Source: Gammaproteobacteria bacterium
Lineage (GTDB): Bacteria; Pseudomonadota; Gammaproteobacteria; DRLM01
NCBI GenBank assembly: GCA_023266095.1
Contig: JAHFRV010000003.1
Location: 29,444-93,443 of the forward strand
DNA: 64,000 bases
Reading direction: 5' to 3'
Shown: one piece after another, positions 3,959-64,000 of the stretch
Position numbering within the stretch: the first letter of the stretch is position 1
How the letters are laid out: every line of letters starts with the position of its first letter
The notes under the pieces: generated by a model
What the model saw: the letters and a program-made list of their open reading frames with translations, nothing else
Told to the model about the DNA's origin: nothing
The model's database searches: none
Position numbers and translations under genes: made by a program

Positions 3959-4895
3959 CGGGTGCTCCCGGTGGACGGGTCTTGAAGCGGCGGTGCACCC
4001 ACAGATATTGCTCGGGGATACGGCGCACTTGCGCCTCGATGGTTTGATTGATGCGGGTGGCGTCGGCGATCAGGTCGCCGCTGGGGTAATCCGCCAGCGG
4101 GGGCTGGAGGGTGAGGCGATAACCCGCATCGCCGGGCAGACGCTGCGCCAGCAGCGGGATCACCGGCGCACCGCTGGTCTGGGCGATGCGCGAGGTGGCC
4201 GTGATGGTGGCGGCGGGCACACCGAAGAAGGGCGCGAAGCCGCTGAGCTTGCCGGCGTAGTTTTGATCGGGGGCGTACCACAGCGCCTGATTGTTTTTGA
4301 GGGCGCGGTACATGGCGCGCATATCGGTGTGGGGGACGATGGCGGCGCAATAACGGCGGTGCGCCGCTTCCTGATAACGCTGGTAGAGCGGATTTTTATG
4401 CTGGCGATAAGTGGCGTGCAGCGGGGTGTGCATGGACAATAGCCGTGCGATCAATTCCATGGTGGTGAAGTGACCCATCAGCACGATGGCGCCATTGCCT
4501 CGCGCGTAGGCGGCGTGCAGGTGTTCGAGGCCTTCTACTTGTACCCGCGGCCGTAATTTTTCCGTGGCGGTGAACCAGCTCATCGCGGTTTCGACGACGG
4601 CGAGGCCCACTGATTCGAGGTGCTTGCTGAGTAACCGGCGCCGCTCGCTGTCGCTGAGTTCCGCCAGGCAGAGGCGGAGATTCACTTCGGCTATATGACG
4701 GCGGCGTCCGCCGACGATGTTCAGCAGACGCCCCAGCCCGCGCCCCAGTGCGAGCTGCGCGCGGAAGGGTAATTGCGCCAGACACCACATGAGACCCAGC
4801 ACCAGCCAAGTGGGCCAGTAGCGGGGTGATAGAAAACGCGAATTGGCGGGCGGGGTATCGGTCACGATGAATGGACGAAATGCATAAGCGCGCAT
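3942..4895 (-). CDS. lipid A biosynthesis lauroyl/myristoyl acyltransferase (LpxL/HtrB/MsbB family)
   Basis: The long ORF 3942..5486 is trimmed to the Met at 4895 (MRAYAFRPF...). The 318 aa product is colinear with the LpxL family (N-terminal TM, HxxxxD-type acyltransferase region). The upstream 197 aa are Arg/His-rich junk. Confidence 0.8.
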
Positions 4896-5147: not shown

Positions 5148-6569
5148 ATGACGATCCATATTCCCAATTTCGACAAGGCCCGCGTGCTGGTGGTCGGCGA
5201 TGTGATGCTCGACCGGTATTGGCATGGCACGACCTCGCGCATCTCGCCCGAGGCGCCGGTGCCGGTGGTGCGGGTCGAGCAGGCCGAGGATCGTCCCGGC
5301 GGCGCGGGCAATGTGGCCTTGAACATCGCCGCGCTGGGTGCGGTGGCCAGCCTGATCGCCGTCACCGGCGAGGACGAGGCGGCGCGCACCCTCACCCAGC
5401 AGCTCAGCGTCGCGGGCGTGACCTGTGATTTCGAACGGCTGCCCGGCGTGCCGACGGTGACCAAGCTGCGGGTCATTTCGCGGCACCAGCAGTTGATACG
5501 CCTCGATTTCGAAAGCAGCCTGCCGGGCTTCGCCCCCGCCGTGCTGATCGCCCGTCTACGCGAGGCCCTGCCCGCTACGGATGTCGTGCTATTGTCCGAT
5601 TACGGCAAGGGCGCGCTGGCGGCGGTGGGCGAATTGATCGCGGCGGCGCGCGCCGCCGGCAAACCGGTGCTGGTCGACCCCAAGGGCCGCGACTTCAGCC
5701 TCTATCGCGGCGCGACGCTGGTGACGCCCAACCTCGCCGAGTTCGAGGCGGTGGTGGGCGCCTGCCGCGATCAAGATGAGTTAGTGAATAAAGGTATGGC
5801 CTTGCTGGAGGCGCAGCAATTCGAGGCGCTGCTGATCACCCGCGGCGAACAGGGCATGACGTTGCTGCAACGCGGCAAAGAAGCATTACACTTGCCCACC
5901 CGCGCGCGCGAGGTGTATGACGTCACCGGCGCCGGCGACACGGTGATCGCCGCGCTGGCGGCGGCGCTGGCGGCGGGCGAATCCTTGCCGCAGGCCACCG
6001 CCTTCGCCAATCTCGCCGCTGGCATCGTGGTGGGCAAGCTGGGCACGGCGACGGTGAGCGTGCCGGAGATCCGCCGCGCCCTGCGCGAAGACTTCACGCC
6101 GGAACGCGGCGTGTTGAGCGAAGAACAATTGTTGGCGGCGGTGGCCGACGCCCGCGCCCACGGCGAGACGGTGGTGATGACCAACGGCTGTTTCGACATT
6201 CTGCATGCCGGGCATGTCGCCTATCTGGAGGCGGCGCGTAAACTGGGTGATCGGTTGATCGTCGCGGTCAACGATGACGATTCAGTGCGCCGTCTCAAAG
6301 GCGCGACGCGGCCGCTGAATAGTTTGGATCACCGCATGGCGGTGGTAGCGGCCTTGAAGAGCGTGGATTGGGTCGTGCCGTTTTCCGAAGACACGCCGGA
6401 GCGCTTGATTTGCAGAGTGCTGCCGGATTACCTGGTGAAGGGTGGCGATTACCGGCCCGAACAAATCGCCGGCCAGCGTTGCGTCACCGAACACGGCGGC
6501 GAGGTGGTGATCCTCGATTTCATCGAAGGCCATTCCACCACCCGGATCATCGAGCGTTGCAAACTGTGA
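5148..6569 (+). CDS. hldE: bifunctional D-beta-D-heptose 7-phosphate kinase / D-beta-D-heptose 1-phosphate adenylyltransferase
   Basis: 474 aa from [24 protein letters not shown]. PfkB kinase N-domain plus cytidylyltransferase C-domain ([16 protein letters not shown]). The ORF is trimmed from 4932. Confidence 0.9.
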
Positions 6570-6573
6570 GGAG

Positions 6574-7539
6574 ATGCCTGTGATCATCGTGACTGGTGGC
6601 GCCGGATTTATCGGCAGCAATCTGGTGCAGGCGCTCAATGCGCGCGGGCGTGGTGACGTGCTGGTGGTGGATAATCTCGAACGCGGCGAGAAATTCGTCA
6701 ACCTTGCCGATTGCGACATCGCCGATTACCTCGACAAAGACGACTTCATGACTCGCGTCGAGGCGGGCGGCGAGTTCGGCGGCAAGATCGAGGCGGTGTT
6801 CCATCAAGGCGCCTGTTCCGCCACCACCGAGTGGAACGGCCGTTATCTGCTGCGCAACAACTACCAATACTCGAAACGTTTGCTGCATTATTGTCTCGAG
6901 CGGCGTATCCCGTTCGTCTACGCCTCGTCGGCGGCGGTGTACGGCGCCGGGCCGGTGTTCAAGGAGGGACGCGAATACGAGGCGCCGCTCAACGTCTATG
7001 GCTATTCTAAATTTCAGTTCGACGCTTATGTGCGCGGGATATTGCCGCAGGCGTCCAGCCAAGTCGCGGGGCTGCGTTACTTCAATGTCTACGGTCCGCG
7101 CGAGCAGCACAAGGGCGGCATGGCCAGCGTGGCCTTTCATCTCAACAGGCAATGGTTGAACGGCGAGCACTTGAAGTTGTTCGAGGGCTGCGACGATTAT
7201 GATGACGGCGAACAGCGCCGCGATTTCATCTATGTCGGCGACGCGGTGGACGTCAATCTCTGGTTGCTCGATCAGACGGCGGTGTCCGGCATTTTCAACG
7301 TGGGCACCGGCCGCAGTCAGACTTTCAACGACGTGGCGCGGGCGGTGATCGCCTGGCACGGCGCCGGCGGGATTGAATACATCCCCTTTCCCGAATCCTT
7401 GCGCGGGCGTTATCAAAGTTTCACCGAGGCGGACATCGGCGCCTTGCGCGCCGCCGGGTATGACAAGACGTTTCTCAGTGTGGAGCAAGGCGTGAAGTTG
7501 TATCTCGATCAACTCAATCGCGGCCGGGTGCAGCCATGA
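6574..7539 (+). CDS. hldD: ADP-L-glycero-D-manno-heptose-6-epimerase
   Basis: 321 aa. N-terminal [13 protein letters not shown] Rossmann motif and an SDR/epimerase signature. Sits directly after hldE. Confidence 0.9.
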
Positions 7540-8093
7540 ACGACTTGGACTTGCAGCGGTCGGTGGCCGAACATCGCGCCGCGGTGGACGCGGTACTGCG
7601 CCTGGCGCCGCGCTTGGAGGCGGCGGTGGCGCTGCTCCGCGCGACCTTCACGGCGGGGCGGCGTTTATTCATCTGCGGTAACGGCGGTTCGGCGGCCGAT
7701 GCCCAGCACCTCGCCGCCGAACTCACCGGCCGTTTCGAAAAGGAGCGGCGCGGTTATCCCGCCGTCGCGCTCAATACCGATAGCTCGGCGCTCACCTCCA
7801 TCGGCAACGACTACGGCTTTGAGCAGGTTTTTGCCCGCCAGCTGGAAGCGCTGGCCGGCCGCGACGATCTATTGATGGCGATCAGCACCTCCGGCAACTC
7901 GCCCAATGTGGTGGCCGCGGTGCAACGGGCCCGTGCGCTGGGCCTGAACAGCATCGGCTTGTTGGGGCGCGACGGCGGGGTCTGCGCCGAACTGGTCGAT
8001 GTGCCGCTGGTGGTGGACGTGCCGCGTACCGCGCGTATCCAGGAGGCCCATATTCTGATCCTGCATTTGTTATGTGAGGGTTTGGATGGGTGA
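7536..8093 (+). CDS. gmhA: D-sedoheptulose 7-phosphate isomerase (SIS domain)
   Basis: 185 aa SIS domain ([24 protein letters not shown]). Overlaps the hldD stop. Confidence 0.8.
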
Positions 8094-12149: not shown

Positions 12150-12235
12150 CCGGTTGGCTAGGGGTGCCTCGCGCAGCGGGGCTGAGAAACACCCTTCGAA
12201 CCTGATCCGGTTGAGACCGGCGTAGGGAAGCCGCA
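12150..12235 (+). ncRNA. TPP (THI-box) riboswitch upstream of thiC
   Basis: ctaggggtgcc...gctgagaaacaccctt..gaacctgatccggtt.agaccggcgtagggaag matches the TPP riboswitch consensus (GGGGUGCC, CUGAGA, ACCCUU..GAACCUGAUC..GGUUAAUACC.GCGUAGGGAA). Confidence 0.85.
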
Positions 12236-12276
12236 TCACTGCCGCCGACCTGCGCCCATATCTTCCCCCACTTTGA

Positions 12277-14166
<1,890 letters not shown>

Positions 14167-21408: not shown

Positions 21409-24400
21409 TCAATTGCCTCTTGATGTCCAGCTGAATCCGCCGCTCACGCGCGCGCCGGCGGCGTCGAAGAGCAGCACCTTGAATTGTGTTGGGTTGGGCG
21501 CGTCTACGAAATCGTAAATCGCATAGCGCGCCACGGTGCCGCTCGGCGTCACCGTGATCGACGACACATCGAGAAAGGCCGCGCCGAACGTCACCGTCGT
21601 GCCGCCTGCATCCGCCGCGGCTGCCGTGCCCATGCCGGCGTCGGATTTAAGTTTGAGCGACGCTTTGACGTTGAGGCTGTCGATGCGCACCAGGTCGTCG
21701 CCGCCGCTCGATGTCGTCGCGATCGTCACGCGCACGAAGCGAAAGCCGCCGGCTGCGAATGCCTCCCACACACTGCCATAGCTTGTCCACGCGCCCGGCG
21801 ACCCGCCGCTGTCCGGCGCGGTCTCCAGCGTCGGCGTCAACGTGTTGGTGCCATGTATCTGTGTTGTGGTGGGCGTGATCGTGATCTTGGTCGCCGGCAG
21901 CGTGGTGCCGTAGTCGATCACCTCTTGATACGATCCCGTCGCCGCCGACGGCTCGGCGTAGATCGGGTAGCCCGCCGAGATCTGCGCTTGGATGTTGCTC
22001 CAGCCGCCGTTGCTGAAATGCTGCGCCCAGGTCTCTGTCGTGGTCACCGGCAACAGCAGCGCGCCCGAGGCCAGCACCACCGCGCTGGTCTTGGTGCCGC
22101 CAAACGCGGAGTTCTGATCGCTGCGCAACACATAATCCGGCGGCTGAGAAACGGCGGCCGTCACCGCCACCGCCGTGCCCGCGTTGTCGGCCACGTCCAC
22201 CGGCTGCACCCAATACGTGTAATTGCCGCTCGCATCCTCAAACACCACGGCAAACGTCGAGTCCACCGCGCCGAAGTCGCGATCGGGCGAAGCGAAGACC
22301 GCGCCGCGCCGCACGTTGTAACGGCGGATCGGCAGCGAGCCTGGCGTCGCGGTCCACTTGAGCAACACGTTGTTGTCGATCACCTGCGCGATCGGGCTGC
22401 TGACCGTCGGCACCACCGTGGTGAACGTCGCGGTGGCGGCGTTGGTGCTGTACTTCTTGCGGCGGTCGATGGCCTTCACGAGATAGGTATTGAGGCCGGC
22501 CGGCAACGCTGTCAACAGCGTGTTTTCGGCGCTGCCGCGGAACACGAACGTCGCGGTGGCCCACACCGTGCCGCGGCGCACCTCGTACTCATTCACGTCG
22601 ACGTCGGCGACTTGTGACCACTTCAGCCGCGCGCGATCGCCGTCAATCTCGATCCACGCCGAAGCCACATCGCTCGGCGGTTGTTCCTCGCCGAGCACGG
22701 TGTAATTGAGCTGCTGGATATAGGGCGATTTATAGCTCATGGTGTTGACCGCGCACACTCGCACGTCGTAGGCAACGAGATCGCGCACCGGGAACAGATA
22801 CGCCTCGGTGCTGGAACGGCTCTGCGTCACCGTGCCCACCACCCAGTCCGACGACAACGACTCTTTGAGCTCAAATTGATAGCCGACCGCGTAGATGTCG
22901 GTGGTGGCGGTGATGTTGCACTTGATGCGCGCCAGGTTGGTGCCGTCGCCGAGGCGCATCAGGCCGTTGGTGCCGCCATCGAGCACCAGCGCCGAAGGCG
23001 GCACCACCACCGTCGGGTCGGGCAATCCGGTGTCGGCCGGCGTGGGCGCGGCCGTCGGCAATGCCAGGTCGTAAACCGTCGGCTCATGCTCGCGCGCCGT
23101 CACGCGCACGGTGCCGTCGTTTTGCAGGTCGAGTGTCAGCAGGCGAAACGTCTTTGCAGTCCACGCCGGCGTGGGGTGCGTGATGTTCACCACGTCGCCG
23201 ATACCACATTGCAGCGCCGCCAGCGTGGCGGTGAATCTCACCACCAGGCCCTGGCGCGATTGCTTGAGCTCCAGCTCGCAGAGATCGCGGGCGCGATACC
23301 AATTCTTTGTGTACGGCAGCGTCAGTCGCCGGTCGAGCAGGCGGTAGTTGTCGGCGGCGAGGAACGTCGGCGAATCGCACGGTGCCACGTCGGGCTCATA
23401 GTCCAGCGCCGGATTGCTGAAGCTCGCAGACACGCGGTTGCAGCGGTCGCGCTTGCTTGAGAATTCGATACCCCACTCGCCGACGATGTTGTCGATGTCG
23501 AAGGTGAATGTGGCCGCGGCCGGCTTGTCGAGAATGAGCGTGTACTTTCCGCCCGTGGTGGAGATGAACCCGCGGCAGCATGTCAGCAGCTCGATGATGT
23601 TGTCGCGCACCGGCCGGGCGGTGTCGACCGCGCCGTCGCACGAATAGAGGTTATGAAAAATGCCGGCGCCGTTGTATTGCTCACGCTGAATCTCGCAATA
23701 GGTCGCCGCGTCGATGATGGCGTCGTCGTCCACATCGGCCGTGCTGGCGCCGAGGCCATAGCGGGCGCTGGTGAGGTAGTCCCGAATGCACAATGCGGGG
23801 TTGCTGCTGTAGCGGGTACCGGGCACGATCGCGGCCGAGGTGGTGCGGACGTAGGGTTTCACTGCGCCGCTGCTGTTGAGCTGGACGCCGAAGATATAGA
23901 TGCCGGATACCCCGTCGCCGGCAAAGCTGTACACGCCGGCCGCCGTGGCCGCGTTAACTCGTGCATAGGCTGCCACACCCGTCCCGACCGGGACTATCGC
24001 CTTTACCCGCCACCAGCCGTCGCCAGCATCTTCCGTGCTAACGGTTACGACACCGAATGCATTCGACGTTGCGCCCGTGGTGAGGTCGATCCAGCAGCCG
24101 TTGTCGACGCCATTTGACCTCGCCGAGAACAGCCCGAATTGGTACTCGGCGGCCTTGGCATAAAATGAAAACGCATAGGCGACGCCTGCCAGGAATGTGA
24201 AATTTTCGCTGATCGCGTGCTCGGCGGCGCCGGCGCTCGCTATGAGTTTGTCGGCGGTGAGCGTGCCGTTCGGAGCGATGGTGGCGTTGGCCGATACGGT
24301 TGCATTGAGCTTGACCCAGGCTGCGTTGTCGAATTGCTCGCTATAGGTGAGCCTGTTCTCGCGCGGATCGTAGACCTGCCTGCCTCGCAAATCCGCCTGC

Positions 24401-25005
24401 ACCCTCGGCCGGCCGCGCCACACATTGGCATCCCACTTGAAACGGATATAGGTGTAAGGGATGCCCCGGCCGCGGTGCGCCGATGTCCACGCCGCCACCT
24501 CGGCGACGAGATCGGTGTCGGCGGTTTGCGAGTCGCTGCCGGTGTGGTGATTGATGCGCACCAGGCCGGCATATTTTGCGTCGGTGCTGATAATGTCGTC
24601 GATGTAGACGGCGTCGATCGCCTCGATCTCGCCGTCACCCCACACATACACGTGGTGCAGGTATTCGTTATTGGCGCCGGTGACCACCTCGAGCACGCGG
24701 ATTCCACCGGCGCGGTCCACGCCATACGGCACGGGCAACGGTTGCACGGCGCCGGTGCGCGTGAGCAACGTGCCCTGCAGACGCGCGACGTCGGTGTTGA
24801 TGCTCGGAATATCCGGCTTGAGCGCGCCGTACAGGCCGGCCCCCGAAAACGGAAAAAAGATATTGAGCGGGTTTTCGGCGAATCCTTTTAGACCGCCGCT
24901 GTCATCGATGCCGAGCTGATTGTCGGCGAATCCTTTCAGGCCGCCGCTGTCATCAAGCCCGAGCACATCATCGAAGAATCCGCCCATCAGGAAGCGCGCC
25001 CCCAC
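21409..25005 (-). CDS. phage host-specificity / central tail fiber protein (gpJ-like, GTA g15-like)
   Basis: 1198 aa. Sits directly downstream of the TMP and distal tail proteins and is typical large tail-tip architecture. N-terminal tandem peptide repeat. Confidence 0.65.
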   Translation of the reverse strand: MGARFLMGGFFDDVLGLDDSGGLKGFADNQLGIDDSGGLKGFAENPLNIFFPFSGAGLYGALKPDIPSINTDVARLQGTLLTRTGAVQPLPVPYGVDRAGGIRVLEVVTGANNEYLHHVYVWGDGEIEAIDAVYIDDIISTDAKYAGLVRINHHTGSDSQTADTDLVAEVAAWTSAHRGRGIPYTYIRFKWDANVWRGRPRVQADLRGRQVYDPRENRLTYSEQFDNAAWVKLNATVSANATIAPNGTLTADKLIASAGAAEHAISENFTFLAGVAYAFSFYAKAAEYQFGLFSARSNGVDNGCWIDLTTGATSNAFGVVTVSTEDAGDGWWRVKAIVPVGTGVAAYARVNAATAAGVYSFAGDGVSGIYIFGVQLNSSGAVKPYVRTTSAAIVPGTRYSSNPALCIRDYLTSARYGLGASTADVDDDAIIDAATYCEIQREQYNGAGIFHNLYSCDGAVDTARPVRDNIIELLTCCRGFISTTGGKYTLILDKPAAATFTFDIDNIVGEWGIEFSSKRDRCNRVSASFSNPALDYEPDVAPCDSPTFLAADNYRLLDRRLTLPYTKNWYRARDLCELELKQSRQGLVVRFTATLAALQCGIGDVVNITHPTPAWTAKTFRLLTLDLQNDGTVRVTAREHEPTVYDLALPTAAPTPADTGLPDPTVVVPPSALVLDGGTNGLMRLGDGTNLARIKCNITATTDIYAVGYQFELKESLSSDWVVGTVTQSRSSTEAYLFPVRDLVAYDVRVCAVNTMSYKSPYIQQLNYTVLGEEQPPSDVASAWIEIDGDRARLKWSQVADVDVNEYEVRRGTVWATATFVFRGSAENTLLTALPAGLNTYLVKAIDRRKKYSTNAATATFTTVVPTVSSPIAQVIDNNVLLKWTATPGSLPIRRYNVRRGAVFASPDRDFGAVDSTFAVVFEDASGNYTYWVQPVDVADNAGTAVAVTAAVSQPPDYVLRSDQNSAFGGTKTSAVVLASGALLLPVTTTETWAQHFSNGGWSNIQAQISAGYPIYAEPSAATGSYQEVIDYGTTLPATKITITPTTTQIHGTNTLTPTLETAPDSGGSPGAWTSYGSVWEAFAAGGFRFVRVTIATTSSGGDDLVRIDSLNVKASLKLKSDAGMGTAAAADAGGTTVTFGAAFLDVSSITVTPSGTVARYAIYDFVDAPNPTQFKVLLFDAAGARVSGGFSWTSRGN
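24877..24972. repeat. 2 x 48-bp tandem repeat inside the 5' end of the J-like gene
   Basis: ggcgaatccttttagaccgccgctgtcatcgatgccgagctgattgtc versus ggcgaatcctttcaggccgccgctgtcatcaagcccgagcacatcatc. It encodes the duplicated DDSGGLKGFA(D/E)N peptide. Confidence 0.7.
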
Positions 25006-29618: not shown

Positions 29619-30548
29619 TTATTTCACCGTCAGGGAGTATTCATCATTGCCGGAGGTCGGCACGAAGATCAGATCCATTTGCAACATCGCAATGCCGTCC
29701 TGGTTGCTGTAACGCGGCTTGTTGATCTGCACCTTGCTTGCATCGAATTGCACGATGCCTCCAGCGGCGGTGCCGTGAACCAATTGCATCGCGGCCAGTG
29801 TTTCGGCCTTCGCTATCGTGAAAAAGTTTTTTGTGGTCAGCACCGGCGCTTCAATTAAACAGTTGCCGCCGCCGTCTCGGTCAACCACTGACACTTCCTC
29901 CACGCCCACCAAGTTGCGATAGCTCGTCTTTACGCCGCTGGACACTTCCAGCTTTTGCAGCTTCGCAGCAAGGGAGTGCAAGGTGAAGGTAGGCGTGTTG
30001 GCGTTGGTGATCGCCTTCGGCAACTGGAATGCCGTGTACGTCGGCGTGGGATTCGCCACGGTAGAGGGATCAACAAAAATGCCGGTGAAATTAAATTTGT
30101 ATTTGGGGATTTTCTTGGCGTCGAGCACAAAGCCCCAATCGCCGCGCACACCCACCATCGCGTGCTTTTGCCCGTCGATGAAAAACCACAACGTCACCGC
30201 TTCTTCGCTGCTGTCCACCGGGTTATAGATCACGCTCACGCCGGCACTAATCGTCTCCGACATAGCGCACGCGCGCAGCAGAGGGCCATAGGCAGGTGCC
30301 GTGCCCGCCGCGCCGGCGCCGGCCACTTCCACTTCGAAGCTGATCATCGCGCGCAAGCCGATATGAATAACCTGCTGCGCGCCTAAATTATTGCGCACCA
30401 GGTCACGGGATTCCTCGTCGGCCTCTAACGGGGTGAACTCAACATTGCTGCACTGGATCGCGTTCGCAGCGCCCGTCGGCGTGGAGTCGGTGCCATAGGT
30501 CGTCTCGATCTTGGCGAGCACGACCATCTTGCGGAATTTTAGCGGCAT
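29619..30548 (-). CDS. phage major tail (tube) protein
   Basis: 309 aa, beta-rich. Directly precedes the chaperone pair, consistent with siphovirus major tail gene order. Confidence 0.65.
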   Translation of the reverse strand: MPLKFRKMVVLAKIETTYGTDSTPTGAANAIQCSNVEFTPLEADEESRDLVRNNLGAQQVIHIGLRAMISFEVEVAGAGAAGTAPAYGPLLRACAMSETISAGVSVIYNPVDSSEEAVTLWFFIDGQKHAMVGVRGDWGFVLDAKKIPKYKFNFTGIFVDPSTVANPTPTYTAFQLPKAITNANTPTFTLHSLAAKLQKLEVSSGVKTSYRNLVGVEEVSVVDRDGGGNCLIEAPVLTTKNFFTIAKAETLAAMQLVHGTAAGGIVQFDASKVQINKPRYSNQDGIAMLQMDLIFVPTSGNDEYSLTVK

Positions 30549-32938: not shown

Positions 32939-35254
32939 TTACGCGACGACGGCCTTGTACCAGCCGCGGTACTCCAACACGTTGCCGCCGTAGATGTGGC
33001 GGAGTTTATAGGTCACCTTGTCGTGCGAGAACATGGAGCCCTGCGTGGGGTTGTCCTGCACGAACAGCTCGGGTTCTTCGTTGCCGTCCAAGAACGCGAT
33101 CTCGACACCCGGCACCTCGTTGGGATCACAGCTCACGGCCCAGTCGGTGGCGTCGGTCCAATACCACACCGGCTGCACCCGCATCTGCAACGACTCCACA
33201 AAATCGGTATCGTTGTTCGTCGCGCGGCGGAACAAATCGAACGCGGCTTCTTCAAGGTCGAACGGCACCCACAGATTCACCGGCGGCACGCCGATGCGGT
33301 CGGAGCTGGAAAGCTCGGTTTGCTTCAGCACCGCCAAGCGTGCAGCGGCCACGGCGGCCGCGCTGAGCGCAGCGGAGCCGAGGTTGCCGTGCGTGGCGTG
33401 AAAGAACGCGACCGCGTCGTACAGCGTCGGGTTGTCCTTCACGAAATCCAACACGAACTTGCTGAGCGTGCGCTTGGCCGCGCGCGAGAGTTTGATAGGC
33501 AGTTGCCGAATCACGCCCACGTCGTCGTTGCGAATCCCTTCCAGCGTCACCTCTTCGGTGCCACCGCGTTTTGTCACCGCATAGGTGGCCTTCTCATCAC
33601 CGGGTGTGGTGAGCGGCTCATACGGATAGCCTTGCGACACCCCGGGCAGGTCGCCGTAACCGCCCAAGCGCGTGCGCTCCTGCGTGCGGAAATCGCTCAC
33701 CGGCACCACGCTACAGGCGTTGCGCCACACTTCGTAGCGGCTGGTCTGCGCGTAGTCGGCAATCATGCGGCGCGTCATGGAGTCGCCCAGCACGTTGGCG
33801 AATGTGGATGAGTTCACCGACTCGCGGAACATTTCGTCGCGCACCGCTTCGCGCAGTCGTGCAGGGTCACAGTCGCGCAGTTGGCCGGTCACGCGGCGAT
33901 CGCCGGTGATCTCGATGTAACATTCTTTAAACGAGGTCGGCCCGCCTTTTTTCGCGGCGAAGAAGTCATCCATCATCTTTGATACTTTATCCGCGCGGTC
34001 TTCACCGCCCTCCACGCGGCCGCCCTCGCCGAGGCCGGTCACGCGGCCCGACTCGGTAAAGCTCGAGAGATAGGTGCGCTCGTCGGCGATGGCTTGATCC
34101 ACCGCCGCCTCGGTAAACGTGGTGAGCCCGTCGAAGTGCTTGCGCAATTTTTCCTTGGCCAGCTTCGGCAGGTTGGCTTCGGCGATGCGCACCCGCGCAT
34201 TCGCGCGCGTCTCCATCATCGACAGCCGTTGAGTCATGCGCTCGTCGAGCGCCTCCAATAATTGGGCATCGGCGGGCGATCCATCGCCCGCGTCCGCACC
34301 TACTGCCTCATCGCCACGGTTGTTCGTGAGTGCCTCGCGGTACGCCGTCTCCAGCGCCGCGTCATCGTCCACATTCAAACCCGTCGGAAGCTGGCCCTTG
34401 TTGGCGCGCTTGACGGCCTCGATCATCCGATCACGTAATTTCATATCCTCTTGCTCCTCCGGGTTGAACGCCTCGATCAAATTGATTAACTGCCCACCCG
34501 CGCCGGGCTCGATAATGAGATCGACGCTGTTGACCTTGCTGATGCTGGTTGCGTTGCGACGATTGCCGACCGTCTTGGCCGTGCCTGTCGCGTCGATGGA
34601 AAATCCAAACAAGTCCGCCGCCATGCCGCGCGCGTGCGCCTCGCGCAACTTCGCGGGCACATCACCGGCGGACTCCAACAGCTCCAGCACCGCGCGCACT
34701 TCACCGGTATTGGTGCTGCTGCCCTCCACGAATCGCGGCTGCGTGATGCGCCCGATTAAATTATTAAACGCCTTACCCTTGCCCTTGATGTGCTCCTCGT
34801 CGCTCTTCACGAACACGCGCGCGCCCTCAAACAGCGGCGTGGCCTCGCGCAATACGGCGTCGGGATAAAAATTATTGTTGCCGGAGAGCCCGGCCTTGAT
34901 CACGCGAATGGTCCAGCGCGTGCCGGCGGCGTCTTGGGATTCGATAAAAACGCCGGCCATTGCCTCGCGCAACGTCACCGGCTTGTGGTCCACCACAACT
35001 TCCTGCGGCGTGCCGAGCGTCACCGTATTGTCATCGCTGAGCGTGTAGGGATACGACCACAGGCGACCTTCGCGCGATGCGACGGCGCGGTCGGGATAGA
35101 TCGCCTCGAGCGATAGATAACAACCCGGAGCGGGTCCGCTCGTCGCCGCGGCGATGGCCGCGCGCACCAAGTCAATCACCGCGCGCAGCTCGGTGGCCAT
35201 CGCCTCGCGCAGCGATACTTCCCCGATCACGCCTTGCTGCGGTACGCGTTTCAT
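32939..35254 (-). CDS. fused prohead protease-scaffold-major capsid protein (Mu I/Z/T-like)
   Basis: 771 aa. N-terminal protease-like region, central coiled-coil/acidic scaffold-like segment, C-terminal ~300 aa capsid-like region. Single uninterrupted ORF. Confidence 0.55.
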   Translation of the reverse strand: MKRVPQQGVIGEVSLREAMATELRAVIDLVRAAIAAATSGPAPGCYLSLEAIYPDRAVASREGRLWSYPYTLSDDNTVTLGTPQEVVVDHKPVTLREAMAGVFIESQDAAGTRWTIRVIKAGLSGNNNFYPDAVLREATPLFEGARVFVKSDEEHIKGKGKAFNNLIGRITQPRFVEGSSTNTGEVRAVLELLESAGDVPAKLREAHARGMAADLFGFSIDATGTAKTVGNRRNATSISKVNSVDLIIEPGAGGQLINLIEAFNPEEQEDMKLRDRMIEAVKRANKGQLPTGLNVDDDAALETAYREALTNNRGDEAVGADAGDGSPADAQLLEALDERMTQRLSMMETRANARVRIAEANLPKLAKEKLRKHFDGLTTFTEAAVDQAIADERTYLSSFTESGRVTGLGEGGRVEGGEDRADKVSKMMDDFFAAKKGGPTSFKECYIEITGDRRVTGQLRDCDPARLREAVRDEMFRESVNSSTFANVLGDSMTRRMIADYAQTSRYEVWRNACSVVPVSDFRTQERTRLGGYGDLPGVSQGYPYEPLTTPGDEKATYAVTKRGGTEEVTLEGIRNDDVGVIRQLPIKLSRAAKRTLSKFVLDFVKDNPTLYDAVAFFHATHGNLGSAALSAAAVAAARLAVLKQTELSSSDRIGVPPVNLWVPFDLEEAAFDLFRRATNNDTDFVESLQMRVQPVWYWTDATDWAVSCDPNEVPGVEIAFLDGNEEPELFVQDNPTQGSMFSHDKVTYKLRHIYGGNVLEYRGWYKAVVA

Positions 35255-35641: not shown

Positions 35642-36559
35642 TCAACCCACTCGACGTGACCGCCCGGCCTCTTCCAATTCGCGCTTGCTGCGGCTGCGCG
35701 CCAGCTCCTCGGAGGTGAAGGCCTTTTTCTTCGGGCTACTCATATCCCAGTGCGCCATGTGCGGCAGCGACTCGCAGCCGCAGTTGATCGTCTCACCGGC
35801 CGGCCCCTGCGGGTCGCGCGGGTAGCGCAGCAGCACCACGCCGCGCGGCGTGTGCAGCCGAAACGGCTGGTCGACCGACTGTATCTGCCCGTCCGCGGCG
35901 TCATGATGGAAGCGCGAATGCACTTTCCCTGAGCGGCGCCACTGCCGTTGCAGCCCGGGCAGAATCTCCACCGCCTGCTGCTGTCGCTCATACGCGGCGG
36001 TGGAGAACGCGCGGCCGAGTTCGGTGCGCACCACGGTGATTGCCCGCCCGCGCCCGCCCTCAAACAAACCGGCAATGCTGCCGATGGCGTCCCCAGGCGA
36101 TTGCGCGCCGATCGCCACCAGGCCCAGCTGTGTGTTGATGCGATTCGCGACGGTCATCGATATATCGCGCATTTTATCGGTCATAAACGTGCGCATGCTG
36201 AGCAGCTGTTGCGTGTCCAGCTGCGGCAGCACCGCGCTAATGCGTATCCCGCCCGCCTCGAGCGGCCGCTCGATCAAGTCCGCACCCGCCTCCCACGCGC
36301 GGCCCGCGGCGCTGTTCACCGCGCGGCCCGCCTGCAGGGCCAGCTCATCCAGCGTCTGGCGGATGGACTTCTGCAGCTGCGGCAGGTGATAGCGTTCCCA
36401 CTCCGTGGGCGCGCTGGCCAGCGTAAGGCGCGCCCGCTCGTTCGCCACGGTGAGCAGCCGTTCGATCTCGCCGAACGTGTCGCGCTGGATCTTCGTGCGC
36501 ACCGCCGCGGCCTCGGTGCGCACGACTCTTAGGCGTTTGTTTTTTTCGCGCTCATTCAT
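35642..36559 (-). CDS. phage head morphogenesis protein (Mu F / SPP1 gp7 family)
   Basis: 305 aa in the F-like position after the portal. F-family assignment is from memory. Confidence 0.7.
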
Positions 36560-43149: not shown

Positions 43150-44505
43150 TTACCGCCGTTGATTCATGATCAAGCGGCGGCGGTTGCCCATCGCCTGCGG
43201 CGTGTAGATATCACTGTTCGCCGCCACCGAATGTCCGGCCGGCGGCTGCATGGGATTGTGCGCGGCGTATTGACCGAGGAAGGCGGCCCACGCGCGGTCG
43301 GCGTGGCCGGCCTCGTCACTCTCCGCGTCGAGCCGCACGTGGCCCAATGTCGTCACGGTCTTGCGCAGCTTGTGCAGATCGGCGCGCAGCTCTTTGTCGC
43401 CCTGGCGGATGCGCACCTTGCGGTCTTCGAATCCCTGCTTGCCGATGGTGCCGAGCTGAATTTTATTTGGCCCGGTGAACAGCACGCCTTCAACGCGGTG
43501 TTCACCGTAGCGGCGCTTGGCATCTTCCACCGGCTTCTCGCCCATGCCGGTTTGATCGATCGCGAGCCGGCGCACGTCGTAGCGGCCGACCAGCTCATCC
43601 AGCACCGCGTCGTGCTCGGCGAACTTTTTGCGCTTGAGTGTGACGATCTCGCGCTCCCACAGCACATCGCCCACCAGCTCCCACACCCACGCCACCCACA
43701 GATCGCGCCGCGCGCCAATGTCGTTACCGATGTAGCAGGGGCCGCCCTGATACAGCTCAGGCCGGCCGGCGTCCGGGTGTTCCACGCCGTTAATGAGGTC
43801 ATAGCTCAGCCACGCGCTGGCTTCGTCCAGCCAATGCAGCTCGTATTCCTGCGCCCATAAATCATCATCGTTCAGGCCGCGCCGCAGCTCGTCGATGTCG
43901 CGGTCCAACCCTTCGGCCACGGCCTGGTGAATATCCACCACGTGGCGGTGATCGGCCCACACGGAATCCGCCGTGGTCATGAGGTCGTAAAATTTATTCC
44001 CCTTGCCTTTCGGCGTGGACGTGATGCGCAGCTTCAATCCGCGCTTGCTCACCACCGGGAACAGCGAGCCCCATATCGCGCGCGAATCTTGATGGATGGC
44101 GAACTCATCCAAATACACATTCGCGGAGAAGCCGCGGGCGGTGTCGGGGTTCGCCGGCAACGCGGTGATCTTCGAGCCGCCGGGCAGCTCCACCTCGAGC
44201 GCGCGATAGCTTCCCTCGTCACCGCGCCAGTCGTATTCCAAATTCGTCACCGCCAGGTTGTACGCCTGGCAGTGCCGCTTGATACCTTCATCCATCGCCT
44301 CTTTGGCCTGTCGCTCGCCGCGCGAGAGGATCACCCAACGCTCGCGCCGCCCGCGCGAGATAGCCTCAAAACAATCATCGACAATTTCCAGGCAGGTGGT
44401 GAATGTCTTGCCGGTTTGTCGCGCGAACATGCCGATCTTGAAGCGCGAGCGATCCAGGAACCACCGTTGCTGATAGCCGTAGAGCGGAACGACGGGCATG
44501 TTCAT
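43150..44505 (-). CDS. phage terminase large subunit (Mu gp28-like)
   Basis: 451 aa. Walker A FARQTGKTF and a nuclease-like C-terminal half. Follows the DUF3486 gene. Confidence 0.8.
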   Translation of the reverse strand: MNMPVVPLYGYQQRWFLDRSRFKIGMFARQTGKTFTTCLEIVDDCFEAISRGRRERWVILSRGERQAKEAMDEGIKRHCQAYNLAVTNLEYDWRGDEGSYRALEVELPGGSKITALPANPDTARGFSANVYLDEFAIHQDSRAIWGSLFPVVSKRGLKLRITSTPKGKGNKFYDLMTTADSVWADHRHVVDIHQAVAEGLDRDIDELRRGLNDDDLWAQEYELHWLDEASAWLSYDLINGVEHPDAGRPELYQGGPCYIGNDIGARRDLWVAWVWELVGDVLWEREIVTLKRKKFAEHDAVLDELVGRYDVRRLAIDQTGMGEKPVEDAKRRYGEHRVEGVLFTGPNKIQLGTIGKQGFEDRKVRIRQGDKELRADLHKLRKTVTTLGHVRLDAESDEAGHADRAWAAFLGQYAAHNPMQPPAGHSVAANSDIYTPQAMGNRRRLIMNQRR

Positions 44506-52095: not shown

Positions 52096-53343
52096 ATGGT
52101 TATGCCCCGCAAAAGGGAAGAAGACTGGCTCACGTATCGGCGTAAGCCGCTCACCCCGCTCAAGCTCAAACGCCTGCTCATGGCCTACCGCGCCAGCCAG
52201 GTAGATCTCGCGCGCCGGCTGGTGTTGGACAACGGGTGTCCACCGCACGAAAGCACGATGGCGCAAATCATCAACCGCGATATCTGGCCCACCAAAACGT
52301 CGCGCGAAAATCTCACCGCGCAAATTCACGCGTACCTGCGCGAGCTGGGTGTGAGTGATGAGGAGATCGCAACGTCGTTGCAGATTGATGATGAATCCGG
52401 CCGGCCGGTGATTGCTCGCCGCCAAGCTCGCCAACCACCGGCGGCCGGTCCGAATGTCGATTATGAGAACCCACTTCCGGAGACTGCCATGTTATCACAA
52501 GCCGCGCGCAAACATTTCAAGCTATTCAAAGACCCATTTTCGGACGACGTGCAAGGGCCGGACGATGTGTACCTGAGCGCCGAGCAACGCTACATCCGCG
52601 AGGCCATGTTTCAAACCGCCAAGCACGCCGGCCTGCTGGCCGTGATCGGCGAGAGCGGTGCGGGCAAGACCACGCTGCGGCGTGATCTGCTCGACCGCAT
52701 CCAGCGCGAGGGCCATCACATCACCGTGATTCAACCGCGCATCATCGACAAAGGCCGCCTCACCACCGGCGCAATCTGCGACGCCATCATCGCCGACATA
52801 TCGCAAGAGCGCGTAAAGCACAGCCTGGAAGGCAAGGCCCGGCAAATCGAACGGCTGCTCACCGGGTCATCCCGCGCGGGAAATAGTCACGTGCTCATCA
52901 TCGAAGAGGCGCACGACCTCACCATCGCCACACTGAAATACCTCAAGCGGTTCTGGGAACTGGAAGACGGTTTCCGCAAACTGCTGGCCATCATCCTGGT
53001 GGGCCAGCCGGAACTGAAAGACCGGCTGGATGAGCGGCAAAACTGGGAGGCCCGCGAGTTTATCCGCCGCTGTGAAATCGCCGAGCTGATGCCGCTCAAC
53101 GGCAACCTGGAGGAATACGTCGCGCTCAAGTTCAGGCGCATCGGCAAAACGCTGGATGAGCTGTTCACGCCGGATGCGTTCGACGCGATACGTGATCGCC
53201 TCACCCTGCGCCAGCGCGGCAACGACGTCACGGTGTCCATGCACTATCCGCTGGTCGTGAATAATTTGATCGTCCGCGCGTTGAACGTGGCCGCCGAAAT
53301 CGGCGAGCCCACGGTCACCGGCGACGTCGTGCGGGGGGTGTGA
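52096..53343 (+). CDS. transposition ATPase (Mu B / TniB-like AAA+)
   Basis: 415 aa. Walker A GESGAGKTT and Walker B LIIEEAH. Directly after A. Confidence 0.8.
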   Translation: MVMPRKREEDWLTYRRKPLTPLKLKRLLMAYRASQVDLARRLVLDNGCPPHESTMAQIINRDIWPTKTSRENLTAQIHAYLRELGVSDEEIATSLQIDDESGRPVIARRQARQPPAAGPNVDYENPLPETAMLSQAARKHFKLFKDPFSDDVQGPDDVYLSAEQRYIREAMFQTAKHAGLLAVIGESGAGKTTLRRDLLDRIQREGHHITVIQPRIIDKGRLTTGAICDAIIADISQERVKHSLEGKARQIERLLTGSSRAGNSHVLIIEEAHDLTIATLKYLKRFWELEDGFRKLLAIILVGQPELKDRLDERQNWEAREFIRRCEIAELMPLNGNLEEYVALKFRRIGKTLDELFTPDAFDAIRDRLTLRQRGNDVTVSMHYPLVVNNLIVRALNVAAEIGEPTVTGDVVRGV

Positions 53344-61781: not shown

Positions 61782-62450
61782 ATGGACGCAAGCAAAAATA
61801 TACTCATGGTAAGCACCAGTTATGGCCGTATCGACGAGGCCCATCCCACCGGTTTGTGGTTCGAGGAATTCGCCATACCTTATGAGAAATTCACCGCCGA
61901 GGGTTATGTGGTGACGGTGGCCAGTATCAAGGGCGGTAAGGTGCCGGTGGACCCGCGCAGCGAACCCGCCGACCAACAGTCCTTGGAGGTTCGCGGGCCG
62001 CGCGAGGCGCTCAAACATACCCAGCGCTTGCTGGAGGTGGATGTCAGCGAATACGACGCGGTGTTTTTCCCCGGCGGCCACGGCACCATGTTCGATTTTC
62101 CGCACAGTCACGAAGTGGCGGCCCTGGTCAGCCACTTTCTCGGCGACGGCAAGGTGGTCGCCGCCGTCTGCCACGGTTCCGCCGCCCTGGTGGAGGCCAA
62201 AGATCGCCACGGCGCGCCGGTGGTGCGAGGCCGTAAGCTGACGGCTTTTACCGACGCCGAAGAGCGGGAAGTGCAACTGGATACTCTTATGCCGTTTCTG
62301 CTGGAAACCCGTTTAAGGGAACTGGGTGCTCTGGTGCAGACCGCGCCCAACTGGCGGGAGCACGTGGTAGTGGACGGCACGTTGGTGACGGGGCAGAACC
62401 CGCAATCCAGCGCCGCCACGGCCGATGCGGTGCTGCGTTTATTGGCGTGA
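61782..62450 (+). CDS. DJ-1/PfpI family (class I glutamine amidotransferase-like) protein
   Basis: 222 aa. Nucleophile-elbow AAVCHGSAAL. Confidence 0.7.
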   Translation: MDASKNILMVSTSYGRIDEAHPTGLWFEEFAIPYEKFTAEGYVVTVASIKGGKVPVDPRSEPADQQSLEVRGPREALKHTQRLLEVDVSEYDAVFFPGGHGTMFDFPHSHEVAALVSHFLGDGKVVAAVCHGSAALVEAKDRHGAPVVRGRKLTAFTDAEEREVQLDTLMPFLLETRLRELGALVQTAPNWREHVVVDGTLVTGQNPQSSAATADAVLRLLA

Positions 62451-62523
62451 AAAGCACGCGCGACGACGGATGGGCTCCGCACTGATACGGCGGTTATCAC
62501 CCGGCCGGTGAGGCAATCGCAAC

Positions 62524-62590
62524 AGGGGAGGAATCCTGATGGTGAAAAAGGTGAGCAAGTTCGAAGAGCAATGGCGCGGTGAACTCGACG
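62524..62590 (+). repeat. direct repeat copy 1: duplicated msrB 5' end (RBS plus first ~17 codons)
   Basis: About 88% identical to 63682..63747. Encodes the remnant ORF MVKKVSKFEEQWRGELD... (62539..62616). Confidence 0.7.
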
Positions 62591-62717
62591 TCCCGAGAAA
62601 TACTGACATTGAATAACAGGCCGTTCATCGGCTTGAAGGCCAAGTTCCAATTTTGAGATAGGTTGTAGTCATATACGACACGCTTTCATACATAAAGGAC
62701 GAATTACGAATAGACTC

Positions 62718-63104
62718 ATGGCCGCCATAAATAAACCTCTTCGCAATTCAATGCTTCTGTTCCTAGCCGCGGCCTCGTTGGTTTCTTCGCTGTCTGTAGC
62801 CGATGCGGGTGGGAGCGTCGGCATTCCTATTGATCGCGCCGTGGTGACAGACGGGATAACAGCCAACAGAGTTAATATGACAGCCCAGGTTTTTTTAAAT
62901 CCTTCACGAGTGACTCTGACGATGAACGAGGACGTGCCCAACTATATCTTCTGGGTGTCATGGATGCGACCGAAGGAAAGTCCTGGTGCGACTATCGAAC
63001 TTTCAAAACCATTACATTGCATGAAACCATTTTTGAAGGATTCAAAAAACTGGATAACCGTCGTCTCAATGAGCGCGCATCCAGGGTTATCGAAGGTATT
63101 TTGA
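62718..63104 (+). CDS. secreted hypothetical protein (low-GC islet)
   Basis: 128 aa with a signal peptide. Lower GC than its flanks. Confidence 0.5.
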   Translation: MAAINKPLRNSMLLFLAAASLVSSLSVADAGGSVGIPIDRAVVTDGITANRVNMTAQVFLNPSRVTLTMNEDVPNYIFWVSWMRPKESPGATIELSKPLHCMKPFLKDSKNWITVVSMSAHPGLSKVF

Positions 63105-63117
63105 GTGATGATCTCCC

Positions 63118-63622
63118 TTGCCGGAGAGTAAAATGAAAATAAATTACGCTATGTTAAAGAACAGGCACTACTCATCCAGTCGAACGAGGCCGGGTTCTAT
63201 GTCCGCCAAGGATGTATACAAGGAGATTGGATACGGTTTTGATGATTTGATAAAACAAAATCCTGCATATAGGAATACATGCGCGGTCAGGCTGAGCCTC
63301 GCGCTGATTAGATCCGGTGTTCATTTCACGGGTCGATTACCGATCAAAAACGGTCCTTATCGGGGAAGAATGATCGAGTCGGGCGCGAAACTACTGGCCG
63401 ATCAACTGGCCCGCGCTGTTCTGTTTGGGAGACCGGCGGTCTTTGCGTCCCAAGAATGTCATGACCCGGCTGAACGGAAAGCAGGGCGTGTTTTTGTTCT
63501 GGAAAATTACCGACTACGGTGGTGGGCACATTGATCTGATAGAAACGTCGAGCACGGTACATGTTTGTCATTCCGAGTGTTACTTTTCCTCCAAGGAAAT
63601 CTGGTTTTGGTCCTTGCCGTGA
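63118..63622 (+). pseudogene. Tae4-family peptidoglycan amidase toxin (T6SS effector-type), frameshifted
   Basis: Two frames: 63118..~63447 (NTCAVRLSLALIRSG catalytic-Cys region) and ~63449..63622 (GKQGVFLF...GGGHIDLI...HVCHSECYF...LP). Together colinear with Salmonella Tae4 as I remember it. Single-nt frame change near 63448. Confidence 0.65.
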
Positions 63623-63681
63623 AACCGCAACGGAGGATGAGAATGACGCGGTTTGATATCGAGTAAGTGAGCAAGCGCAGC

Positions 63682-63747
63682 AGAGGAGAATCCTGATGGC
63701 GGAGAAGGTGAGCAAGTCCGAAGAGCAATGGCGCAGTGAACTCGACG
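63682..63747 (+). repeat. direct repeat copy 2 at the authentic msrB start
   Basis: See copy 1. Confidence 0.7.
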
Positions 63748-64000
63748 ACCAACAATTCATGGTCTGCCGCCGCAAGGGCACCGAGGCGCCGTTCAGCGGC
63801 GAATACTGGGATAGTAAAGAATCCGGTGTTTATCATTGCGTGTGTTGCGGCGCCGCCTTGTTCGACTCGGAGACTAAATTCGATTCCGGCACCGGTTGGC
63901 CCAGTTTTTATCAGCCGGTGGACGGCCATATCGTCACTCAGCGCGACGCCAGCCACGGCATGACCCGCACCGAGGTGATGTGCAAGGCCTGCGGCGCTCA
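63696..64000 (+). CDS. msrB: peptide-methionine (R)-S-oxide reductase (partial, continues past window)
   Basis: [17 protein letters not shown]...[24 protein letters not shown], a SelR/MsrB signature with CxxC pairs. Confidence 0.85.

Follow-up and report, generated by a model that had tools for sequence, protein, structure and literature searches.

Near the right-hand end of a 64,000-nucleotide (nt) stretch of a gammaproteobacterial genome (GenBank assembly GCA_023266095.1, contig JAHFRV010000003.1, positions 29,444 to 93,443; this whole stretch is hereafter the window, and positions are counted from its first letter), two small genes of bacterial warfare lie between two copies of the start of the housekeeping gene msrB. 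The first is a rap1a-like immunity gene of the Tai4 family, and the second is an ssp1/tae4-like gene for a type VI secretion system (T6SS) peptidoglycan amidase. Both genes are now pseudogenes, and the islet that carries them, low in G+C content (GC), is foreign DNA inserted at the start of msrB. The locus reads as follows, from left to right:

61782-62450, plus strand: DJ-1/PfpI family gene, the intact left neighbour and a synteny anchor (Pfam DJ-1_PfpI, 66.3 bits)
62508-62593, plus strand: R1, the displaced msrB ribosome-binding site and first 18 codons (repeat alignment; 7 private changes)
62594-62717, plus strand: islet leader, low GC, 124 nt, with no similarity detected to other leaders
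62706-63136, plus strand: rap1a-like (Tai4-family) periplasmic immunity pseudogene (homologue frames, PF18602, structures 4bi8 and 3zfi)
63133-63622, plus strand: ssp1/tae4-like T6SS peptidoglycan amidase pseudogene (homologue frames, PF14113, structure 4bi3)
63623-63666, plus strand: islet trailer, 44 nt, with a 7-bp stem only and without attC (fold z -0.8/-1.3)
63667-63750, plus strand: R2, the working msrB ribosome-binding site and first codons (repeat alignment)
63696-64000, plus strand: msrB, truncated by the end of the window (SelR, 121 bits; 131 amino acids (aa) in the matching contig L172)

The identity of the upstream gene becomes apparent once its reading frame is mended. Independent homologues align in frame +3 over 62709-62897 and switch to frame +2 over 62891-63121; in other words, the open reading frame (ORF) at 62718-63104, which reads as a 128-aa "secreted protein", is a frameshift artefact, and the true C-terminal half lies in the ORF at 62960-63136. 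The frameshift falls at a run of seven Ts (62890-62896) for which homologues imply eight, and the addition of one T to this run yields a 139-aa Rap1a. The ORF as encoded has no Pfam match; the repaired protein scores 40.3 bits against PF18602, for which the cut-off is 27.7 bits, and it matches the Rap1a structures 4bi8 and 3zfi with an E value of 3e-23. At the N-terminus, a hydrophobic stretch, LLFLAAASLVSSLSVADA, follows a basic start, as read by eye. At 62706-62708, an ACG stands opposite Met1 of the closest homologue, the next Met being at 62718, and the original start codon has probably been lost through a change from ATG to ACG. At the other end of the gene, the stop codon overlaps the ATG of tae4 (ATGA, 63133-63136). 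The upstream islet gene is thus directly adjacent to tae4 and, with its frameshift and an ACG apparently in place of the ancestral ATG, not intact: it is a Rap1a/Tai4-family immunity gene that has become a pseudogene.

A first-pass annotation of this sequence had reported no recognizable Tai4-like immunity gene, which the repaired Rap1a contradicts, while guessing that the secreted neighbour of tae4 might be an immunity protein, which its Rap1a identity bears out. Tae4–Tai4 pairs are also known in Salmonella and Enterobacter, and in Salmonella tai4 lies downstream of tae4, which is where the first-pass annotation had expected the gene. The order is the reverse in the Ssp1/Rap1a branch: the Serratia rap1a gene (SMA2260) is found immediately upstream of ssp1 (SMA2261), and the Tae4 family is partnered by Rap proteins, which belong to the Tai4 family (PMC3533786). 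Because rap1a lies upstream of ssp1 in Serratia as well, the immunity gene of the window is present, recognizable and in its usual place.

The amidase gene is also split, in place of the single open gene that had first been read here. Independent homologues cover residues 1-108 in frame +1 (63133-63456) and residues 95-162 in frame +2 (63410-63619), the frame being interrupted by a +1 frameshift from one extra base. Any single base deleted within 63425-63469 restores an ORF of 162 aa; the extra base is most likely 63447/63448, in GCGTCCC, where its deletion gives FAPKNVM, compared with FAPRDAM in the closest homologue, and the lesion lies outside any homopolymer. Against PF14113 (cut-off 27 bits), the N-terminal half as encoded falls short at 25.1 bits and the C-terminal half reaches 31.6 bits; once repaired, the protein attains 58.8 bits across profile positions 1-125, and so the initial Tae4 assignment holds. 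The repaired protein matches Ssp1 of Serratia marcescens (4bi3) with an E value of 8e-57 and keeps Cys50, His132 and Asp134, the latter two within GGHIDLIE, all of which are invariant in 35 homologues; Cys50 aligns with the Cys50 of Ssp1, the residue mutated in 4bi4 (C50A). The second islet gene is an ssp1/tae4-like T6SS peptidoglycan amidase gene, now a pseudogene.

Are the two frameshifts real? The islet is 100% identical in a second contig, L172, from a metagenome in ENA, whose "k141" name we take to mark MEGAHIT short-read output, and in L173, which Logan assembled from run SRR14366785. Unbroken ORFs in the window include those of 1199, 1150, 803, 772 and 748 aa, and no other broken gene was seen in the approximately 55 kb of coding sequence. 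Base-for-base identity of these two assemblies, together with the unbroken state of the other genes, led us to reject an assembly or nanopore error as the source of the frameshifts, and we conclude that they are real, with the caveat that both assemblies may share the same reads. The live orphan toxin implied by the first-pass annotation is unsupported, both genes being frameshifted identically in the two assemblies. When repaired, rap1a and tae4 contain no stop codons and keep every family-invariant residue.

The pair is readily placed among known systems. The Ssp1–Rap1a pair of Serratia marcescens Db10 (Tae4.1/Tai4.1a; PDB 4bi3, 4bi8, 3zfi; PMC3533786, PMC3852654) shares with it both families and the gene order, with the immunity gene upstream; the effector is 163 aa in Serratia and 162 aa in the window, the catalytic Cys50 is common to both, and the candidate N-terminal export signal of the window Rap1a, read by eye, would be a further likeness. 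The Serratia pair is functional and lies inside a T6SS cluster, whereas the window pair is isolated at msrB, low in GC and frameshifted in both genes. The Tae4–Tai4 pair of Agrobacterium tumefaciens (PDB 6ijf) shares PF14113 and is more distant (effector E 2e-30, immunity E 2e-3); unlike that pair, the window pair sits in the Ssp1/Rap1a branch. Considered alone, this defunct version of a thoroughly understood toxin–immunity pair adds little. Its genes are ordinary; it is the signature of the insertion that is mildly interesting, and a similar signature recurs at two other loci, L103 and L089.

At msrB, this signature begins with a direct repeat. An ungapped alignment pairs 62531-62593 with 63688-63750 (63 nt, 90% identity), and allowing two 1-nt gaps extends the pairing to 62508-62593 (R1) and 63667-63750 (R2), over 86 nt at 87% identity (blastn E 7e-25). 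The local alignment score is 111; five unrelated loci, like their shuffled versions, score 18-31 by the same procedure. Both copies take in about 30 nt 5' of the msrB ATG, including the GGAG ribosome-binding site, and the first 18 codons. R1 then runs on into unrelated sequence, heading a 25-codon stub ORF (62539-62616), and R2 continues into msrB proper, with its ATG at 63696 and a product that matches SelR. The first-pass annotation had described an msrB-derived repeat of about 66 bp (62524-62590, approximately 88% identical); the repeat is real. Its other observations on the site also stand, namely the 25-codon stub, the resumption of msrB at 63696 and a low-GC islet of approximately 1.1 kb: GC is 0.474 in the islet (62594-63668), 0.625 in the flank and 0.62 in the whole window, and the lowest-GC stretch of the entire 64 kb falls inside the islet.

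A comparison with related genomes for an empty site, which the first-pass annotation had proposed, is provided by the closest genome found, L001, an uncultured gammaproteobacterial metagenome-assembled genome whose DJ-1 and MsrB are both 93% identical to those of the window. There, DJ-1 is followed by a 91-nt spacer and then directly by msrB, with synteny conserved on both sides. Because the spacer 5' of R1 aligns with the DJ-1/msrB spacer of L001, R1 marks the native position of the msrB start. Contig L172, which is identical to the window, contains a complete msrB of 131 aa, and the genes that lie 3' of msrB are the same as in L001 (HAD hydrolase, NUDIX, inositol monophosphatase). The islet and R1 are the sole differences between the arrangements of the window and L172 on the one hand and that of L001 on the other; in other words, the islet is inserted foreign DNA at the msrB start.

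The leader of the islet (62594-62717) has no blastn match at E<=1 among 91 related loci and folds no better than shuffles (z +0.6), and the trailer folds close to its shuffles, with z -0.8 and -1.3 on the two strands. With neither leader nor trailer finding a blastn match in the 91 loci, we reject a conserved islet end common to several loci. A likeness of the leader to that of L088 in a MAFFT alignment is below significance and is not relied on.

The same pair of genes is present in many other genomes. A search for Tae4 homologues returned 211 at E <= 0.001, and nearly all of the 120 listed are 162 aa in length; in 88 of the 91 related loci, many of which are redundant, the gene immediately upstream of the Tae4 homologue encodes a Rap1a homologue. 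Three settings are found: T6SS clusters, an attC-bearing integron cassette, and bare islets in housekeeping operons. In the T6SS setting, the pairs of L176/L177 adjoin tssE, tssF and tssG, and the effector is 66% identical to that of the window. For the integron setting, L081 contains an IntI (TIGR02249, 487 bits) and a series of cassettes that each terminate in an attC; rap1a-tae4 is one such cassette of approximately 1.04 kb, with a 118-nt attC (fold z -3.4), and attC hairpins also lie 3' of the pair in L096 (z -3.4) and L104 (z -3.9). Bare islets without attC lie between rpsM and rpsK in Candidatus Thiosymbion oneisti, between pstS and pstC (L089), overlapping the uvrD start (L086), and at the 3' terminus of intI (L103). 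These three settings suggest that T6SS effector–immunity pairs circulate as free-standing cassettes. In a limited library, we found no literature statement of Tae4/Ssp1–Rap1a pairs as free-standing circulating cassettes, which is not proof of novelty.

Several of these loci have details of their own. The T6SS-embedded module is duplicated or extended at L176 4593-5547 and L126/L127 4309-5004: L176 has an additional 162-aa gene and an additional Rap1a gene, and L127 has a 231-aa protein made up of two tandem Rap1a domains. In the Thiosymbion contig (L091 5366-6727, SMSC01000015.1), the pair sits in the ribosomal alpha operon with GC of 0.36-0.48 against 0.55-0.64, and a 27-nt repeat, 89% identical, heads small ORFs (5436-5606 and 6579-6725) on either side of the pair. 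The pstS-pstC islet (L089, L090) comes from the samples of the window organism (ERZ27280116, SRR14366785) and belongs to a different genome. At L178 135-1233, the pair adjoins two IS200/IS605-type Y1 transposase genes and several ParE/ParD modules in a mobile-element-rich region.

Among the bare islets, two resemble that of the window in being flanked by repeats. At L103, the repeats are 85 nt long and 88% identical and correspond to the last 28 codons of intI, with a partial intI copy on the rap1a side and the intact intI on the tae4 side. Seven of the eight codons that differ do so at synonymous third positions, and the eighth exchanges Lys and Arg. Because the differences are almost all synonymous, the L103 stub must have been shaped by selection on a working protein, having come from a different allele and not from decay in place. 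The L103 contig also has, to the left of the intI stub (4078-4561), an ORF that by eye resembles a fusion of an antitoxin with a YoeB-like toxin and, at 6784-7623, a second, shorter tyrosine recombinase. At L089, the repeats (5228-5353 and 6580-6709) are approximately 130 nt long and 77% identical and lie in the pstS-pstC spacer. Because each locus has a repeat sequence of its own, the source of the repeats is the target and not the element. Flanking repeats are not a general rule, which is ruled out by five further contexts (L174-L180) without any; apparent flanking repeats at L081, L096 and L111 are not target duplications, being attC sites of neighbouring cassettes.

How do the two copies at msrB compare? 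When L001 and L002 serve as outgroups, about 10 states common to R1 and R2 set both apart from L001. Private to R1 are 7 changes across its 86 nt, including Lys3, Phe8, Gly14, one change past codon 17 and two in the region of the ribosome-binding site; those private to R2 number 4, with three at the far 5' margin and one in codon 2, and, codon 2 excepted, R2 agrees with L001 and L002 wherever R1 differs. The Phe8 and Gly14 of R1 occur in none of 73 working MsrB homologues, so that there is no support for reading R1 as a piece of another functional msrB allele; R1 looks like a decaying copy. Nor is R1 a hairpin site, as it folds no better than shuffles (z +0.9). The private divergence of R1, 8%, is comparable to half of the divergence between the window and L001 at four-fold sites (0.19-0.21), and for this reason the insertion would be old. 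Because the repaired genes keep their invariant residues and have no stops, the genes would have been maintained for much of the time since the insertion and inactivated more recently.

We think it likely that this locus holds a decaying orphan effector–immunity module of the Ssp1/Rap1a type, captured at msrB by a recombination that duplicated the start of the gene. As originally inserted, the first gene would have encoded a Sec-exported periplasmic immunity protein and the second a 162-aa Cys-His peptidoglycan amidase, the enzyme that hosts with a T6SS would fire into the periplasm of their rivals. The module would have been mobile DNA that inserted after the split from the nearest sampled relative, and recombination would have joined it within the first 18 codons of msrB, supplying or regenerating a second ribosome-binding site and start. 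The resulting order would be the native msrB promoter region, the R1 stub of 25 codons, rap1a, tae4 and the working msrB headed by R2, with transcription of the module presumably proceeding from the region upstream of msrB and reading through into msrB. Two routes could give this outcome: we favour a homology anchor in msrB on one side combined with an illegitimate join on the other, and a single crossover of a circle bearing a piece of msrB would serve as an alternative. An old insertion followed by a more recent inactivation may then account for the present, non-working state, with one frameshift in each gene, a rap1a start that is probably lost and a stub in decay. Acquisition by recombination at a gene start had been suggested in the first-pass annotation and is still, in our analysis, the best reading of the insertion mechanism, supported mainly by the parallel locus L103 and the synonymous differences of its stub.

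Several points weigh against this account. The proposed route has no donor sequence and no readable microhomology behind it. The stub of the window, unlike that of L103, gives no evidence for a second functional allele, and the differences between R1 and R2 would fit equally well with a duplication in place followed by decay of R1 or with a single crossover near -17 between two alleles. Target-derived repeats are found in only 3 of approximately 15 distinct contexts, so that there may be no mechanism in common. A promoter scan of 62350-63800 found no sigma-70-like site, a result that is uninformative on expression either way. Additionally, L172 and L173, which confirm the frameshifts, may rest on the same reads.

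Among the alternatives, the one that survives best, and which we regard as possible though clearly less probable than capture by recombination, is that the islet was captured illegitimately and independently of homology, by template switching or the repair of a staggered break. Such an event would have left two identical 86-bp copies, with R1 decaying later and the left end of R2 drifting. The repeats of the window are compatible with this history: the states that R1 and R2 share against L001 make the two copies mutual closest relatives, the private changes of R1 include residues never seen in MsrB, and those of R2 fall at the unconstrained 5' edge and in codon 2. The difficulty comes from the other loci, since the almost wholly synonymous differences at L103 are inexplicable by decay and since the repeats are diverged at all three loci, no fresh case of identical repeats having been seen.

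An unlikely explanation is that an integron integrase, IntI, inserted a free rap1a-tae4 cassette at an attG site upstream of msrB, as described for SALINs (bioRxiv 10.1101/2022.09.11.507474), that the attC later decayed, and that the 86-nt duplication is a separate event. The pair is a true attC cassette in L081, with attC hairpins also in L096 and L104; the islet between the repeats, approximately 1.07 kb, is of cassette size, and, like the elements in that study, it is a small unit, seemingly without a promoter, that sits immediately downstream of a host promoter region. IntI-mediated insertion at genomic GWT sites and expression from nearby promoters have been demonstrated (bioRxiv 10.1101/2022.09.11.507474), and a CGCAAC right after the tae4 stop occupies the place where homologues carry the GCTAAC box of attC, a weak positional similarity. 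However, a motif and fold scan of the islet, with DNA folding, found no attC in or beside it, the 44-nt trailer included, and detected the positive controls L081, L104 and L096 at the z values given above. A tblastn search with two IntI proteins had no match in the 64-kb window, and neither islet end has a G|WT or G|TT junction, as read by eye. The 86-nt target duplication is foreign to the SALIN pathway, the IntI reaction being conservative and the paper reporting no target duplication (bioRxiv 10.1101/2022.09.11.507474), and the leader of the islet is 124 nt long, compared with 37 nt in the L081 cassette. Because there is no attC, no IntI in 64 kb and no GWT junction, we do not read the islet as a cassette inserted by an integrase at attG.

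Elements that integrate into the end of a gene typically leave direct repeats that restore the target; for example, e14 and phage 21 at icd and SXT at prfC carry a replacement for the gene end into which they integrate. R1 and R2 could in principle be the attL and attR of such an element, a larger one that targeted the 5' end of msrB, brought a replacement start and later lost its integrase through an internal deletion that spared only the effector–immunity pair. The repeats of the window are diverged, as in gene-end-integrating elements, and, as with e14, phage 21 and SXT, the target is intact through a second, diverged copy of its gene end, with a stub displaced. Those elements are large and bring their own integrase, whereas the islet is 1.07 kb with two small genes only: between the repeats lie the leader, rap1a, tae4 and the 44-nt trailer, with no recombinase gene or fragment and with no IntI-like match in the window. 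Moreover, the islets of L103 and L089 are equally small and sit at different targets, such that near-total deletion would be needed three times; we consider this explanation very unlikely.

Least credible of all is that the genes are alive, with the frameshifts being assembly errors or being bypassed by slippage on the T7 run and +1 recoding: the rap1a lesion does sit in a homopolymer and the repaired frames do lack stops and keep their catalytic residues, but two assemblies by different assemblers agree base for base, the tae4 lesion is not in a homopolymer, the rest of the coding sequence is unbroken, and nearly all of the listed homologues are plain ORFs of approximately 162 aa without such a shift.

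If capture of the module by recombination at msrB is considered together with the other loci, a broader proposal can be made. Three independent bare insertions with diverged, target-derived repeats, one of them diverged synonymously, point to a recombination route for capturing cassettes outside integrons. We raise, as a speculative and rather doubtful generalization, that small promoterless Ssp1/Rap1a pairs spread among related genomes without attC or integrase by recombination anchored in a conserved neighbour gene, at its end or its start, leaving behind a diverged copy of 80-130 nt. If true, this process would bring genes of warfare under the control of housekeeping promoters (those of msrB, pst and the ribosomal alpha operon), and the displaced copy of the gene end would be a scar by which such capture events could be counted. 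There is a partial parallel at rhs and cdiA, where displaced "orphan" toxin–immunity modules lie downstream, beside a short repeated piece of the gene that results from recombination there; the repeated piece at rhs/cdiA is the toxin gene's own end, whereas that of the window is the start of an unrelated housekeeping gene.

As to the wider surroundings, no T6SS family was found in the 37 window ORFs scanned against Pfam, which include all of the large ones, nor among the genes called in the 6 kb downstream on L172, a range of 62 kb upstream and 6 kb downstream of the islet. The absence of T6SS genes nearby that had been remarked on in the first-pass annotation is thus confirmed, and the label "orphan" is correct for the window and 6 kb downstream. 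Other families recognized by Pfam in the window include purT, lipopolysaccharide-core genes, a TolC-like gene, pcm, thiC, a GGDEF/EAL protein, metA and a C39-TPR protein; there are no tRNA genes in the window. A Mu-like (transposable) prophage occupies approximately 19.9-57.7 kb; the minus strand encodes its late genes and the plus strand its early genes:

21409-25005: tail protein
29619-30548: tail tube
32939-35254: capsid
35642-36559: Mu F-like protein
43150-44505: large terminase
52096-53343: AAA_22 MuB-like ATPase

GemA and Mor of this prophage lie at approximately 56.8-57.7 kb according to the L172 gene calls. Finally, an ordinary thiamine pyrophosphate (TPP) riboswitch (12150-12245, 70 bits) lies upstream of thiC (12289-14166).

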